This document shows positions 22,592 through 42,799 of a stretch of DNA of 64,000 nucleotides, piece after piece; position 1 is the first letter of the stretch, and each line of letters starts with the position of its first letter. A program made the position numbers and the translations under genes. Source of the DNA: an uncultured Eubacteriales bacterium (GTDB lineage Bacteria; Bacillota; Clostridia; Oscillospirales; Oscillospiraceae); contig CATEPI010000006.1 in the NCBI GenBank assembly GCA_949525845.1, positions 33,917-97,916 of the forward strand, written 5' to 3'. The notes under the pieces were generated by a model, which saw only the letters and a list, made by a program, of their open reading frames with translations, had not been told where the DNA came from and searched no databases.

Positions 22592-22616
22592 GATTTTCGT
22601 AAATAGTACGCCTCAT

Positions 22617-22647
22617 GGCCCGGAGCTTTGCTCCGGGCCGTTTTTTG
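22617..22647 (+). terminator. Intrinsic terminator after the thiolase
   Basis: ggcccggagc-ttt-gctccgggcc-gtttttt. Confidence 0.85.
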
Positions 22648-22782
22648 AAATCGAATCATTTTTACAACAAATCCGGTGTGCGGCGCATACTATGGATTGG
22701 GATGCTGGCCGGCAAGCTGACCGAACCCGGACTGTCCACCAGTCCCCGCGTACCCAATGTGGAAAAATGTGTGGGAAAGTCC

Positions 22783-22811
22783 TTGACAAAGGTTATAACT
22801 GCTGGTATAGT
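22783..22811 (+). promoter_or_regulatory. Sigma70 promoter of the abi locus
   Basis: TTGACA-17-TATAGT. Confidence 0.8.
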
Positions 22812-22817
22812 AATCTC

Positions 22818-22885
22818 AGTGATTGTGTTGCAGAAACCTGTGAGGCCTGCGACCCAGGGGGTTCCTGCGGGGGCCCTCTTTTTTT
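22818..22885 (+). ncRNA. Putative abiF-type leader/antitoxin RNA
   Basis: Hairpin GTTGCAG..CTGCGAC (22827-22853), then a terminator hairpin (22856-22879) and T-run, between the promoter and the Abi CDS. Confidence 0.6.
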
Positions 22886-22911
22886 ATAAATGTCAGGTGG
22901 TGACTGACCGG

Positions 22912-23853
22912 ATGGCAAAACCGTTTTTGACCTATCCGCAGCAGATTGCGAAGCTGCGTGACGAGAAGGGCCTGATGATTCAGGACGAGCCTTATGCGGA
23001 AGCAATGCTTCGGCAGAACAGTTACTTTGCTCTCGTCACCGGGTATAAGCATCTGTTCAAGGACCAGGCAACCGGGAAATATAAGGCTGGCACCCGATTT
23101 GAGGACCTGGTTGCGCTTTATGAATTTGACCGCAGCCTGCGTGAGCTGTTTCTGCCCTACCTGTGCCGGGTGGAGCGGCACATTCGCTCCCTGATGTCAT
23201 ACTACTTTTCTGAAAAGTATGGAGAATCCCAGCAGGCCTATCTGGACAAAAGCAATTATCAGTACTCAGGTGACAACATACCGCGGGTTGACAAGCTGAT
23301 TTACAAATTATCCGGTATTATTTACGCGCCCAACAGTCCCTATGTGTACATCCGGCACTATGTATCCCGAAATCACAATGTTCCTCTCTGGGTGCTTTTA
23401 AATGCCGTCACATTTGGCACCCTCTCAAAAATGTACATGCTGCTGCCTCAAAATCTCCAAATTAAAATCAGCGCGAATTTTCCGGGCATCAACGAACGTC
23501 AGTTGTCCGCTGTTTTAAGCATCCTTTCCAAATACAGAAACGTCTGCGCCCACAATGAACGGTTGTTTTCCCACCGCTTTCGGGAAAGCATCCCCGATCT
23601 GCTCCTGCATCAAAAGCTCGGGATTCCAAAAACAGGAGCCCAATACAGCTGCGGAAAGTCAGACCTGTTTTCCGTGGTCATCGCACTGCGGTATCTTTTG
23701 CCGAAAAACGATTTTTTGGCGCTGAAGCAGGAACTTGTGCTGCTGATTAACAAGTTTAAGCGCAGTACGACAGCCATTCAGGAAAAAGAACTTCTTTCAG
23801 CTATGGGATTTCCTGAAAACTGGACCTCCATTACAAGGTTCCGCAAGCTATAA
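22912..23853 (+). CDS. Abi_2 (AbiD/AbiF-family) HEPN ribonuclease
   Basis: KPFLTYPQQIAKL, SYFALVTGYK, LYEFDRSLR, VERHIRS, TFGTLSKMY, HEPN motif RNVCAH. Confidence 0.9.
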   Translation: MAKPFLTYPQQIAKLRDEKGLMIQDEPYAEAMLRQNSYFALVTGYKHLFKDQATGKYKAGTRFEDLVALYEFDRSLRELFLPYLCRVERHIRSLMSYYFSEKYGESQQAYLDKSNYQYSGDNIPRVDKLIYKLSGIIYAPNSPYVYIRHYVSRNHNVPLWVLLNAVTFGTLSKMYMLLPQNLQIKISANFPGINERQLSAVLSILSKYRNVCAHNERLFSHRFRESIPDLLLHQKLGIPKTGAQYSCGKSDLFSVVIALRYLLPKNDFLALKQELVLLINKFKRSTTAIQEKELLSAMGFPENWTSITRFRKL

Positions 23854-37994: not shown

Positions 37995-39602
37995 TTATCT
38001 CAGATAATTCAGCGGATTCACCGCAGTGCCGCGGACGCGGACCTCGAAGTGGCAGTGGACGCCGGTGGAGCGGCCGGTGGAACCGGCCTTGGCCACAGTC
38101 TGGCCCTGGTAGACCTTCTGTCCCGCAGACACCACCAGACTGGAGTTGTGGGCGTAGTAGGTTTGGGTGCCGTTGTCGTGGGTGATGATGACCAGGTTGC
38201 CGTAGCTGCCCTTGTAGCCGGCGAAGGTGACGGTGCCGCCGTCGGCCGCCTTGACGGCCTCGCCGTACACGGCGTGGATATCCAGGCCGGAGTGGTAGCT
38301 GTAGCTGCCGAAAATCTTCCGCCCGCCGAAGTAGGAGTTGATGCGGTGGCTGCTGACGGGCCACAGGTAGGTGCCCTTGGACGCGGTCTTGGGCCGCTCC
38401 TTGGTGCCCACGGCCTTTACGGTGGTGGTGGGCTCCCGCAGGGTGGTGGTGTCGGTGACGGTGCGGTCCCGCTCGTAGCCGTTGACATAGACCACATCCG
38501 CCTGAACCTGGGCCTCGCCCTCCTCGCCCTGGGTGAGGATCTTGGAGTCGCCCTTATACATCTTGTCGTCCTGGACCTCCTCCACCGGGCAGGGGATGGC
38601 CTCGGTATAGGTCACATGCTCGGTGGTCTGGACGGACAGGGCGGGGATGACCTCCTTCACGTTGAGCACGTCGCCCACCATCAGCCGGTTGAGGCTGGCC
38701 TGGGGGTTGAGCTCCATCAGGTCGCTGAGGGACATGTCGTTGCGGTAGGCGATGCCGTTGTAGGTGTCCCCCTTCACCACGGTGTAGGTGGTCTCGCCGG
38801 TGGTGTTGGCTTTCAGGGCCTCCTCCACCTGGTCCACGCTCATCAGGTTGTCCGCCGCGTAGACGGGCGTAATGGACACATCCTCCACAAACTCGGCGGA
38901 GGTGGTGGCGTCGGTGACGAACTCGGCCTTGATGCTGTCCAGCATGGTGTTCAGGGCCTCCTGGTCCTTCACCACACCCACCGCCCGGCCGTCCAGAGTG
39001 ATCTGGTAGGCCCGCAGCTGGTCGCTGAGCTCGTTGAGCTGGCCATAGAAGTAGTTGCTGATATCCTGCTCCCGGCTCAGGCCACTTTTCAGGGTGAGGG
39101 TAAAGCTGTAGTCAATCTCGCTGTCCACCTGGTAGCGGTAGCCCAGCAGCTGACTGCCCCGGGTCTCCACCGTCTGGATGGCGTTGTCCACCACGCTCTG
39201 GTCTGCCACAATGCCCACCTCCTGGCCGTCCACAATGACGGCGTAGCTGGTGGAGTAGAGGGTGGTCAGGGTGAGGGCGGCGCCCAGGGCCCCGGCTACC
39301 AGCAGGAAGGAAACGGGGCCCACCGCCAGCGTTCCGGCGGCGGCGCCGTGGAACAGGTGGGCCCAGCGGCGGAAGTGGATTCGTGCCCACTCCCGCATCC
39401 CCTTGGCATAGAGCTTGAACTCTTCCCGCCAGTCGGGGGCGGCGGGGGCGGCGGGGGCATCGGAGGCCCGGGCCTCCTCTTTGGGGGGCTGGACCTTCTT
39501 GGGCTCGGCCTTGGGGGGCTTGGGCTGCCGGATGGGTCCGGTCTGGTCCAGCTCCGCAATGGGGAGCCGGGCGGTCCAGCTCTGATCCTGTACTTGGTTC
39601 AT
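37995..39602 (-). CDS. Membrane-anchored LysM-G5-M23 peptidoglycan endopeptidase
   Basis: TM helix, LysM (YTVVKGDTYNGIA), G5, M23 motifs HSGLD and YYAHNS, HCHFEV. Confidence 0.9.
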   Translation of the reverse strand: MNQVQDQSWTARLPIAELDQTGPIRQPKPPKAEPKKVQPPKEEARASDAPAAPAAPDWREEFKLYAKGMREWARIHFRRWAHLFHGAAAGTLAVGPVSFLLVAGALGAALTLTTLYSTSYAVIVDGQEVGIVADQSVVDNAIQTVETRGSQLLGYRYQVDSEIDYSFTLTLKSGLSREQDISNYFYGQLNELSDQLRAYQITLDGRAVGVVKDQEALNTMLDSIKAEFVTDATTSAEFVEDVSITPVYAADNLMSVDQVEEALKANTTGETTYTVVKGDTYNGIAYRNDMSLSDLMELNPQASLNRLMVGDVLNVKEVIPALSVQTTEHVTYTEAIPCPVEEVQDDKMYKGDSKILTQGEEGEAQVQADVVYVNGYERDRTVTDTTTLREPTTTVKAVGTKERPKTASKGTYLWPVSSHRINSYFGGRKIFGSYSYHSGLDIHAVYGEAVKAADGGTVTFAGYKGSYGNLVIITHDNGTQTYYAHNSSLVVSAGQKVYQGQTVAKAGSTGRSTGVHCHFEVRVRGTAVNPLNYLR

Positions 39603-39650
39603 GGTAATCACCTCTTGTTCTGAGGAAAAAATGACAATCGTGAAATAAGA

Positions 39651-39667
39651 GTTACAAAACGGTAACA
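39651..39667 (-). promoter_or_regulatory. WalR-like direct repeat at the M23 gene promoter
   Basis: Minus strand TGTTAC-N5-TGTAAC just after TTGACG-17-TATATT. Confidence 0.45.
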
Positions 39668-39825
39668 ACAATATACACATTTTCCCGCCATCCGTCAAGC
39701 CCTTTTTTCGCTTCGCCGCAAATTTTTTACCGAAAAAGTGTACAAAAATAGAACGCCGCAGGAGGTTTTGCGGCGTTCTTCGTCTAAATAGTATATAAAA
39801 CTGCAAATATCCCTAGATATTGTGG

Positions 39826-40122
39826 TTATACCACCATCCGCAGGAGGAAGGCCAGCGTCATAACAATCACCGCCGCGCTGGCGCAGGCGTCCAGCCGCCA
39901 GGCCCGCCGCTCCCGCCGGGCGCGGCGGCGCTCCTCGGGGGAGAGGGTGAGCACCACGGGCCGGAACCCGGGCTCCTCCTCAGGGAGGTACGCCTCCACC
40001 TCAGGCTGTCGGGCCAGACTGTCCCGCTGAGCGGCGGCCTGCCGGCGGCGCAGCTCGGTCAGGTCGATGATGTTGCCGGTGTGCCGAATAAAGTTGGAAG
40101 TCTTATAGTACATGGTCTGCAT
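39826..40122 (-). CDS. 98-aa protein with a C-terminal TM helix, under putative LexA control
   Basis: MQTMYYKTSNFIRHTGNIIDL...ACASAAVIVMTLAFLLRMVV; RBS GGAGG. Confidence 0.75.
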   Translation of the reverse strand: MQTMYYKTSNFIRHTGNIIDLTELRRRQAAAQRDSLARQPEVEAYLPEEEPGFRPVVLTLSPEERRRARRERRAWRLDACASAAVIVMTLAFLLRMVV

Positions 40123-40211
40123 AGGTTTCCCCTCCAAGAGTTTGATGTTAGGGTAAGTATAGACCAGAAGCTGTCCAAAAAACCGGACTATTGCGGCGCT
40201 GCCCGGAAAAG

Positions 40212-40259
40212 AAACATTCGTTCTAAGGCGACTATACAACATCCGTTCGAGAATGTCAA
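40212..40259 (-). promoter_or_regulatory. Promoter with two Firmicutes SOS (LexA) boxes
   Basis: TTGACA-17-TATAGT; GAACggatGTTG (40248-40237, in the spacer) and GAACgaatGTTT (40223-40212). Confidence 0.7.
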
Positions 40260-40783
40260 GGGATAATCGAAAATTTGTTTGATTTTTTATAGTGCCACGC
40301 CGGGTTATAGGGCCCCTCGCTTAACTGTATGATCTCCTGAGCGGTATAGAACCAGTCGGTGTCATCGATCCATACATAATCCCGTGCGTTCTCCTCTAAT
40401 TTGAAGTATTGGGACAAAAATCGGAAGGCAAACTCAAAATCTCCGCCTAAATAGTCCAAATCCAGTGCCCAGAAGTAATTTTTCTTTTGAATCAGCCAGC
40501 TAAAGCTGCCATAGGAGCTGTCCTCCGGCCCCTGAATGCTAAATCCGCACTGCCTTGTTTGGATTCCCTTCTCAAAGCTCGTTTTCACCGCCTCGGCGCC
40601 CAGTTCAGACAACGTGCCGTCTACACACTCCGTTTCAGCCCCTGTTATAGGGTCCACATATCGGGACGCCTTCAGACCAATGCAGTGAATGCCCGCCCTG
40701 TCCGCCGCCTGCCGGACGCCGGACAGCGTAGCCTCACAGGAAAATCCCTCTATTTCCTTCAGAATAATGATAGAAACACCCAT
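40256..40783 (-). CDS. Hypothetical protein (low-GC ORFan)
   Basis: 175-aa open frame; no family recognised. Confidence 0.65.
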   Translation of the reverse strand: MGVSIIILKEIEGFSCEATLSGVRQAADRAGIHCIGLKASRYVDPITGAETECVDGTLSELGAEAVKTSFEKGIQTRQCGFSIQGPEDSSYGSFSWLIQKKNYFWALDLDYLGGDFEFAFRFLSQYFKLEENARDYVWIDDTDWFYTAQEIIQLSEGPYNPAWHYKKSNKFSIIP

Positions 40784-40969
40784 TTGGGTCCCTTCCCTCT
40801 TGTCATCTCTCCGCGGCCCTGTTCGCTTCCTATATATTATACAGACGAAGAAAGGGAAAAAAGGTTCCCTTTGTACGTGTTTTTTTCCAGCCCGTGTTGC
40901 TTTTTCGGTAAAAAGGGGGTATAATGCTTTGGCTTATTGAGACATCCACAGATTTGAGGTGCAATTCCC

Positions 40970-42799
40970 ATGAAAAATGAGAAATTAAGAAATATCGCCA
41001 TCATCGCCCACGTAGACCACGGCAAGACCACCCTGGTGGACGAGATGTTGAAGCAGTCCGGCGTCTACCGGGAGAATCAGGCGGTCACCGACCGGGTGAT
41101 GGACTCCGGCGACCTGGAGCGGGAGCGGGGCATCACCATCACCGCCAAGAACACCGCCGTACAGTACGGCGGGGTGAAGATCAACATCGTGGACACCCCG
41201 GGCCACGCCGATTTCGGCGGCGAGGTGGAGCGCATCCTGAAGATGGTCAACGGCGTTATCCTGCTGGTTGACGCCGCCGAGGGCCCTATGCCCCAGACCC
41301 GTTTTGTGCTCTCCAAGGCCCTGGAGCTGGGCCACAAGGTGATTGTGGTGGTGAACAAGATCGACCGCCCCGACCAACGGGTTTACGAAGTGGTGGACGA
41401 GTGCCTGGAGCTGCTGCTGGACCTGGACGCCACCGACGAACAGTTGGACTCCCCCATGCTGTTCTGCTCCGGCCGCCAGGGCACCGCCTCGGTGCAGCCC
41501 GATGTGGCGGGCAGCGACTTGAAGCCCCTGTTTGAGACCATTATCGACTATATCCCCGCCCCCGACGTGGAGGTGGACGCCCCCTTTCAGATGCTGGTGT
41601 CCTCCATCGACTACAACGAATTCGTGGGCCGCATCGCCATCGGCCGCATCGAGCGGGGCAGCGTGAGGCAGAATCAGGAAATCGCGGTGTGCAACTTCCA
41701 CCACCCCGACGCCGCCCCCATGAAGGCCAAGGCCACCGCCCTCTACGAGTTCGACGGCCTGGGCAAGGTCCCTGTGCAGGAGGCCGCCGCCGGCAACATC
41801 ATCGCCCTCAGCGGCATTGGCGACGTGACCATCGGCGACACCATCTGCGCCCCGGACGCGGTGGAGCCCATTGAGTTCGTTCAGATCTCCGCCCCCACCA
41901 TTGAGATGACCTTCTCCGTCAACGACTCCCCCTTTGCCGGCCGGGAGGGCAAATTCGTCACCTCCCGCCAGCTCCGGGATCGGCTGTTCCGGGAGACGCT
42001 GAAGGACGTGTCTCTGAAGGTCTCCGAGATGGAGGGGGCCACCGACTCCTTCAACGTGGCCGGCCGGGGGGAGATGTCCCTGTCCATCCTCATTGAGACC
42101 ATGCGCCGGGAGGGGTATGAGCTGCAAGTCTCCCCGCCCCGCGTCCTCTACCAGGAGGTGGATGGGGTCAAGTGCGAGCCCATCGAGCGGGTAGTGATTG
42201 ACGTGCCCACCGACTATGTGGGGGCCGTGATGGAGAAGCTGGGTTCCCGCAAGGGGGAGTTTGTCACCATGAATCCCGTGGGGAACCGCACCAAGCTGGA
42301 GTTCCTGGTCCCCGCCCGGGGCCTGTTCGGCTACCGCAGCGAGTTTTTAACCGACACCAAGGGCGAGGGCATCATGGCCTCCGTCTTCGACAGCTACGCC
42401 CCCGTCAAGGGAGAAATCCAGCGCCGGTCCACCGGCTCCCTGGTGGCCTTCGAGACGGGCGAGGCGGTCACCTACGGCCTGTTCAACGCCCAGGAGCGGG
42501 GGGCCCTGTTCATCGGGGCGGGCACGCCGGTCTACGGCGGCATGATTGTGGGCGAGTGCCCCAAGGCGGAGGATATCTCCGTCAACGTATGTAAAAAGAA
42601 GCAGCTGACCAACATGCGGGCCTCCGGCTCCGACGAGGCCCTGCGCCTGGTCACCCCCCGCACCCTCTCCCTGGAGCAGTGCCTGGAGTTTCTGGCCGAT
42701 GATGAGCTTCTGGAGTGTACCCCGGAGAATCTGCGCCTGCGCAAGCGCCTGCTGGACCACGGCGCCCGCATGCGGGAGGCCTCCAAGAAAAAAGGTTGA
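40970..42799 (+). CDS. typA: Translational GTPase TypA/BipA
   Basis: [38 protein letters not shown]-like LECTPEN. Confidence 0.97.

Follow-up and report, generated by a model that had tools for sequence, protein, structure and literature searches.

In a 64-kb stretch of Oscillospiraceae DNA (64,000 nucleotides, hereafter the window), we found a gene for a 98-residue membrane protein whose promoter carries three LexA-type operator boxes and is, in all likelihood, controlled by LexA. This assignment is backed by phylogenetic footprinting over about 50 orthologous loci and by the match of the boxes to the clostridial LexA operator. The protein founds a family, confined so far to Oscillospiraceae, that had not been characterised. 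We tentatively propose, by analogy with small SOS-induced membrane proteins of other bacteria, that it could act as a checkpoint effector that inhibits cell division after DNA damage.

A preliminary description of this region, made from the sequence alone, had reported a TTGACA-17-TATAGT promoter with one LexA-type box in its spacer and another near the +1 position, upstream of a small membrane-protein gene. All of its elements were found in the window, on the minus strand. The promoter and the two boxes (box1 and box2) were confirmed at 40259..40211, and the count of boxes was raised to three by a further site, box0 (Table 1). The promoter, of the sigma-70 type, agrees with the consensus at 11 of 12 positions and is the top-scoring promoter-like site in the region. 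With respect to it, box0 flanks the −35 hexamer, box1 fills the spacer and touches the −10 hexamer, and box2 covers the +1 position, the transcription start being predicted from the −10 hexamer to lie at about position 40224. Three sites placed over −35, −10 and +1 constitute a classic repressor layout. When compared with the 10 specified positions of CGAAC-N4-GTTCG, box1, box2 and box0 of the window have 2, 3 and 2 mismatches, respectively. The diverged orthologs have 1–2 mismatches in box2 and 1 in box0, which reads CGAACAAATTTTCG or CGAAAAAATGTTCG there and is thus nearer to the consensus, while the close relatives of the window have 2 in box0. A 9-codon upstream open reading frame (ORF), MFLFRAAPQ followed by a stop codon, starts on the minus strand at ATG 40218 within box2; orthologs have ACG at this position, so this small ORF is not conserved.

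Sites of this kind are rare. Counting both strands, the whole window has only 9 copies of GAAC-N4-GTT, two of which are box1 and box2. Further matches lie at 23494, 23557, 17975, 11101, 6946 and 19221. Those at 23494, 23557, 17975 and 11101 were considered as operators and rejected, as they reside inside ORFs (Abi-like, GntR and others), have no promoter and look like chance occurrences. A 412-residue ORF (22615..23853), Abi-like by eye only, holds the matches at 23494 and 23557 within its coding sequence. A 14-mer with no more than 2 mismatches from CGAAC-N4-GTTCG occurs in 0.4% of random 16-position windows, and such sites in the 263 kb of scanned sequence were found almost solely at the promoter of this gene.

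To follow the promoter across orthologs, we used 15 species-representative genomes, all of them from Oscillospiraceae or unclassified gut Firmicutes (Lawsonibacter, Colidextribacter, Pseudoflavonifractor), about 10 contigs with distant members (39–51% protein identity, one of them, L028, from Intestinimonas), 32 metagenome contigs and 3 contigs of the same species. The conservation of the boxes upstream of homologs, which the preliminary description had named as a check, held at about 50 loci. Every locus with sufficient upstream DNA has the same promoter, and the layout keeps its fixed spacing down to protein identities of 39–46%. In all 21 of the diverse loci compared, box1 keeps its GAAC and GTTG and box2 its AAC and GTT, with a single G to A change in the GAAC of box2; the N4 spacers of both boxes vary freely. 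The distance from the start of the −35 hexamer to box1 is 10 nucleotides at all of these loci except L028 (11 nucleotides). Box1 and box2 are separated by 23–26 nucleotides (24–26 in 20 of the 21), and box0 is located 21–23 nucleotides from the −35 hexamer in 20 of the 21, being missing solely in the Intestinimonas ortholog. Of 29 further metagenome loci, 26 have the strict promoter pattern, in the scoring of which box0 was not included; the three exceptions (L048, L049 and L056) are each a single-base variant of box1. Synonymous sites of the coding sequence have diverged by 0.3–0.9 in the same set of comparisons, at which neutral DNA would not have remained identical.

CGAAC-N4-GTTCG with a variable N4 is the LexA (Cheo) box across the Firmicutes. 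The clostridial LexA operators have the sequence GAACnnnnGTT(T/C), and LexA of Clostridioides difficile binds such sites, including the recA operator GAGAACAAATGTTTGT, as determined by surface plasmon resonance (PMC4234289). Box2 of several orthologs is AGAACAAATGTTTC, whose core is the same as that of this recA operator. The box motif at our promoter equals the clostridial/Bacillus operator GAACnnnnGTT(T/C), a consensus that comes from other Firmicutes and not from the LexA of the host. Taken with the footprinting, this match strongly supports the earlier identification of an SOS-boxed, monocistronic small-membrane-protein gene, and LexA should accordingly bind the boxes, as is established for such sites elsewhere. 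The boxes might instead serve a different regulator, which would leave the gene outside the DNA-damage response, and this alternative draws on the consensus having been taken from Firmicutes outside this lineage. We consider it very unlikely, as no further Firmicute regulator is known to use this dyad and as the three sites would occlude −35, −10 and +1 in the manner of a repressor. In addition, CGAAC-N4-GTTCG with a variable N4 is the Firmicute LexA motif, and it has been validated for clostridial LexA (PMC4234289).

The coding sequence downstream of this promoter was confirmed as a monocistronic gene for 98 amino acids with an Arg-rich stretch and one C-terminal transmembrane helix (ORF 40122..39826, with RRRARRERRAWR followed by the helix). 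A longer reading of 138 residues from ATG 40242 was rejected: it is not conserved, it meets a TGA after four codons in L002 to L004, and public gene calls give 98 residues on 87 contigs. One public gene call (P0294, 103 residues; L020 220..531) begins 27 nucleotides too early, and the conserved ATGCAGAC start behind GGAGGG corresponds to a 94-residue form (P0293; L022 521..805). An intrinsic terminator follows the gene in the window, and a similar one follows it in L019; none was detected after the gene in L009 or L025.

The protein consists of an N-terminus beginning with MQTMYYKTSNFIRHTGNIIDLTELRRRQ, a linker, the Arg-rich segment RRRARRERRAWR and finally LDACASAAVIVMTLAFLLRMVV as the C-terminus. 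In the N-terminal motif, the residues M1, T3, Y5, T8, N17, D20, L21, Y/L24 and R25 are at least 85% conserved in the family, T3, L21 and R25 exceed 90%, and M1 and Y5 are invariant. The linker, acidic and rich in Pro, differs among members in both its length and its sequence. Conserved residues of the C-terminal helix (L77, D78, A81, S82, V85, M88, T89 and F92) lie on one face, and about three residues at most extend beyond the helix in any family member. AlphaFold2, run with a 47-sequence alignment, gave a model of two helices and a disordered linker: a helix at residues 62–97, with a predicted local distance difference test score of 87–98, and a short helix at residues 21–33, residues 1–20 being of low confidence. 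Since the Arg-rich patch precedes the helix, the positive-inside rule predicts that the N-terminal 76 residues are cytoplasmic and that the protein is therefore tail-anchored. The ratios of nonsynonymous to synonymous substitutions against orthologs (0.24–0.52) point to purifying selection.

A profile search of 1.84 billion representative sequences revealed a family of 172 clusters at 50% identity, so far found solely in Oscillospiraceae; its carriers include Lawsonibacter, Flavonifractor-like bacteria, Intestinimonas, Colidextribacter and Pseudoflavonifractor, among them the isolates Colidextribacter sp. OB.20, Pseudoflavonifractor sp. 60 and Oscillospiraceae 50-58 and 44-5. Among the 150 matches listed, most are about 50–160 residues long and one has 2830 residues; full-length matches have about 79–125. 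The family has no match in Pfam, NCBIfam, PADLOC or the sequences of the PDB, and in PHROGs the window protein alone has a weak match (phrog_17376, E = 0.007). The earlier suggestion of a lineage-specific family unrelated to the known inhibitors is thus supported by these databases, with SosA, ChiZ and SidA set apart by description. A phage or mobile origin was rejected, as we obtained no tblastn match in 50,697 phage records, none in IMG/VR and no notable one in PHROGs; the gene is chromosomal. Membership in a defence system was likewise discarded, given the lack of a PADLOC match.

Outside the enterobacteria, SOS division inhibitors are usually small bitopic membrane proteins under LexA control, such as YneA, SosA, ChiZ, DivS and SidA. 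YneA of Bacillus subtilis resembles the present protein in its size of about 100 residues and its single membrane helix, and the yneA promoter region reportedly has three LexA boxes, like that of the gene described here. In YneA the helix is N-terminal and inhibition requires an extracellular LysM domain, whereas our protein has a C-terminal helix with nothing outside the cell and gave no Pfam match to LysM at E values up to 1. Also, yneA is divergent from lexA, whereas the divergent gene here is typA and the window contains no lexA; no sequence similarity to YneA was found through any family model. A further likeness is that the helix of YneA docks on FtsW (PMC13396833), the helix here being conserved along one face. 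SosA of Staphylococcus aureus is likewise a small, LexA-controlled, lineage-specific bitopic protein without LysM (PMC13396833). However, its N-terminus lies inside the cell, and its C-terminal segment, on which activity depends critically, is extracellular and is cut back by the protease CtpA; in our protein the soluble part is predicted to be cytoplasmic, so any protease that resets the system would be cytoplasmic or membrane-bound.

ChiZ (Rv2719c) of Mycobacterium tuberculosis is damage-induced and has an Arg-rich, disordered cytoplasmic N-terminus followed by one helix; unlike the present protein, which ends with its helix, ChiZ has about 165 residues and an extracellular LysM domain after the helix. 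The nearest analogy to a membrane inhibitor without an extracytoplasmic domain is offered by SidA and DidA of Caulobacter crescentus, which have little beyond a membrane helix and block late division via FtsW or FtsN, SidA being LexA-controlled. SidA differs in its length of 29 residues, its origin from a Gram-negative alphaproteobacterium, its lack of a 30-residue cytoplasmic motif and the different LexA motif that governs it. The SulA family (PF03846), of soluble proteins that bind FtsZ, gave no Pfam match, and our protein is membrane-anchored. We regard the family as new because it has no LysM, no SulA domain, no extracytoplasmic part and no pairing with lexA and because its helix is C-terminal, the comparison with SosA, ChiZ and SidA having been made by description.

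On these grounds we suggest, tentatively, the following scheme for an SOS checkpoint effector that would inhibit division. In the undamaged cell, LexA dimers would occupy box0 (at about −50), box1 (spacer and −10) and box2 (+1) and shut the near-consensus sigma-A promoter. DNA damage would cause RecA-stimulated self-cleavage of LexA and free the promoter; with three operators on a strong promoter, we would expect repression to be tight and induction to come late and in a switch-like manner. The monocistronic mRNA, with a 5′ untranslated region (5′UTR) of about 100 nucleotides, would then yield a protein whose 76 N-terminal residues face the cytoplasm and whose C-terminal helix resides in the membrane, and this product may block a late step of division. 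Its polar conserved helix face might dock on a membrane component of septal wall synthesis, for example FtsW, to which YneA attaches by its own membrane helix. The N-terminal motif could serve either as a contact to a cytoplasmic partner in the divisome or as a handle for proteolytic removal after repair. Both the effect on division and the target are proposed by analogy. YneA docks via its membrane helix on transmembrane helix 7 of FtsW, and a like contact is suggested for SosA, ChiZ and SidA by AlphaFold 3 (PMC13396833); a helix with one conserved polar face would fit docking of the FtsW type. The neighbouring cell-wall gene, encoding a protein with LysM, G5 and Peptidase_M23 domains (the M23 protein), adds support by analogy, as it is present in about 40 of 50 loci.

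Several points weigh against this proposal. None of our computations addresses division itself. Compared with YneA, SosA and ChiZ, the topology is inverted, most of the protein being cytoplasmic and the helix closing the chain. The extracytoplasmic domain, which is the inhibitory part of YneA and SosA (PMC13396833), is missing. The gene is not adjacent to lexA, unlike yneA, and lexA, recA and other core SOS genes are absent from the window and the 60 loci (for lexA, as searched by tblastn with B. subtilis LexA). The assumption that the LexA of Oscillospiraceae reads this motif therefore comes from other Firmicutes. Eight mouse-gut metatranscriptomes contain the gene, in assembled contigs that may include DNA; they extend past the promoter and hence inform on neither the start of transcription nor induction by damage. 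Finally, the M23 neighbour has a promoter of its own, and its synteny with our gene breaks in L020/L022, L028 and L056, the boxes remaining.

These last two points bear equally on a different explanation, which overlaps with division inhibition but takes septal wall hydrolysis or cell separation, not synthesis, as the target: the protein may be an SOS-induced modulator of the adjacent M23 hydrolase, or of another envelope enzyme, acting through the enzyme's membrane helix or its cytoplasmic tail of about 95 residues. In the preliminary description, the gene had been placed just upstream of the LysM-M23 gene. The adjacency proved to be conserved synteny, the order typA, gene, LysM-G5-M23 being found in about 40 of 50 loci, including those of orthologs with 46–51% identity. 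The M23 protein itself is bitopic, with an unusually long, Pro/Ala/Lys-rich cytoplasmic N-terminus. The M23 gene, however, keeps its own promoter: TTGACG-17-TATA(G/T)T is retained in the distant orthologs L009, L019 and L025, it has no LexA box, and in the window and L019 the M23 gene lies beyond the terminator of our gene. As adjacency among close relatives may also be mere inherited gene order, we regard modulation of the hydrolase as unlikely.

A variant of division inhibition in which the action lies on the cytoplasmic face seems doubtful to us: the helix would place the protein at the divisome, and the N-terminal GNVVDLxEYRRK would capture or displace FtsA, SepF, the tail of FtsZ or that of the M23 protein. 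If true, this mechanism would set the protein apart from YneA, SosA and ChiZ, which act outside the cytoplasm, and would be the first of its kind. DLxEYRRK may resemble the C-terminal peptide of FtsZ (DIPxFLR), a tentative lead in which the Pro and the Phe-Leu pair are unmatched. No FtsZ was found in the scanned sequence.

Conservation in the protein is highest in a short cytoplasmic motif at the N-terminus, as is typical of binding peptides. This also agrees with the idea of a membrane tether that, in the manner of an anti-sigma factor, would sequester a soluble factor after damage, such as one that controls transcription, initiates replication or repairs DNA. A precedent for an SOS-induced membrane-bound regulator is HigX of Caulobacter (PMC13384398), and genes for sigma factors of the extracytoplasmic function group are found near our gene in L016, L022 and L028. 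These sigma genes, however, have their own anti-sigma partners, and their adjacency is inconsistent. No DNA-binding or anti-sigma domain is recognisable in the protein: Pfam HTH_71 matched at E = 0.14, below any threshold, and an AbrB/MazE-like N-terminus (GRVVIPIELRR against GNVVDLxEYRR) was rejected with an hhalign probability of 0.9%. In the AlphaFold2 model, moreover, the N-terminal part is a single short helix. Sequestration of a soluble factor thus appears rather improbable.

Yet another alternative is an SOS membrane toxin or persistence factor resembling TisB and DinQ, whose helix would oligomerise, dissipate the membrane potential and bring about a general growth arrest, with the 5′UTR as a post-transcriptional safety catch. 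TisB and DinQ of Escherichia coli are LexA-repressed, are inserted into the membrane and have a long 5′UTR, in all of which they resemble the gene described here. The strong promoter under very tight LexA-type control, the conserved polar residues (Asp, Ser and Thr) of the membrane helix and the conserved, hairpin-bearing 5′UTR agree with this explanation. The GUCC/GGAC core of the hairpin is present in nearly all orthologs with aligned 5′UTRs (L013 and L025 differ), and its stem extension covaries at the fifth base pair (G·U, C-G, A-U). The hairpin is located 63–67 nucleotides before the ATG in most orthologs, its 5′ flank being rich in A. Read from the opposite strand, it is a hairpin with a T-run that scored as terminator-like in L019 (3934..3951), as if ending an antisense RNA.

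Other properties of the leader and of the protein make a toxin of this type quite unlikely. TisB and DinQ are hydrophobic peptides of 27–29 residues with a small-RNA antitoxin and a translationally inert primary transcript; our protein, with 98 residues of which 76 are hydrophilic and conserved, lies outside the size range of type I toxins (hydrophobic peptides below about 60 residues). No promoter-like site for an antisense RNA was found on the opposite strand within 39400..40900. The leader also does not appear to hide the ribosome-binding site, as the unpaired probability of the Shine-Dalgarno sequence was the same as in shuffled leaders among 23 orthologs. A pairing of UGGUCU/ACCCU with the Shine-Dalgarno sequence and the start region, which RNAalifold proposed among close relatives, was rejected, being broken in L009, L012 and L019, and the leader and its hairpin had no relevant match in Rfam. 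The gene is furthermore a single copy at a conserved chromosomal site and is not found in phages or mobile elements.

The coordinates of the gene, its control elements and its neighbours are collected in Table 1. In the strain of the window and in L017, a 175-residue ORF (40256..40783, minus strand) lies between typA and the SOS promoter. It has no Pfam or PADLOC match, its G+C content is 45–55% as against 60%, and neither L001 nor the same-species contigs L016 and L018 have it. Conserved promoter DNA, with box0, supplies roughly its ten final codons and its stop (the TGA of TTGACA). The ORF thus resembles an insertion specific to the strain, with a reading frame that continues into the promoter.

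Table 1. Positions in the window of the SOS-boxed gene, its control elements and protein segments, and the adjacent genes
Feature	Position	Strand	Remarks
Box0, LexA-type, CAAACAAATTTTCG	40281..40268	minus	third, weaker and auxiliary; 22 nucleotides upstream of −35
−35 hexamer, TTGACA	40259..40254	minus	unchanged or nearly so across all orthologs
Box1, LexA-type, cGAACggatGTTGt / CGAACGGATGTTGT	40249..40236	minus	fills promoter spacer; last T is first base of −10
−10 hexamer, TATAGT	40236..40231	minus	TATATT, TATCTT or TATTTT in orthologs
Box2, LexA-type, aGAACgaatGTTTc / AGAACGAATGTTTC	40224..40211	minus	7 bases past −10; over predicted +1
5′UTR hairpin, GTCCGGTTTTTTGGAC	40188..40173	minus	GUCC/GGAC core conserved
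Ribosome-binding site, GGAGGGG	40135..40129	minus	kept in all orthologs
Coding sequence, 98-residue protein, predicted tail-anchored	40122..39826	minus	ATG at 40122; stop codon included
N-terminal motif, residues 1–30	40122..40033	minus	family consensus MQTxYYxTxNFIRHxGNVVDLxEYRRKLA
Arg-rich juxtamembrane patch, ERRRARRERRAWR, residues 64–76	39933..39895	minus	precedes membrane helix
C-terminal transmembrane helix, residues 77–98	39894..39829	minus	LDxCASxxVvvMTLxFTLxVL; only hydrophobic helix
Intrinsic terminator, 11-bp stem then ATTTTTGT	39779..39750	minus	T-run
Promoter of M23 gene, TTGACG-17-TATATT	39698..39670	minus	own promoter of that gene
LysM + G5 + Peptidase_M23 gene	39602..37995	minus	next downstream, same strand; context only
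typA/bipA	40970..42799		divergent from SOS-boxed gene

In the literature that we searched, no SOS cell-division inhibitor has been described for the Clostridia. The known inhibitors (SulA, YneA, SosA, ChiZ, DivS and SidA) are lineage-specific, and homology searches therefore cannot find new ones. The locus described here provides a concrete candidate for Oscillospiraceae, abundant gut commensals that often face DNA-damaging drugs, and its conserved triple-operator promoter could act as an SOS reporter in these bacteria. Should the protein prove to be a division inhibitor, its tail-anchored, cytoplasm-facing design would represent a new mechanistic type in its class, the septal wall-synthesis complex could be probed with one more natural tool, the conserved membrane helix, and the missing SOS checkpoint protein would have been named for a large group of gut Clostridia. 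Should it have another function, the gene would still be, given its predicted control by LexA, a core member of the LexA regulon of Oscillospiraceae.

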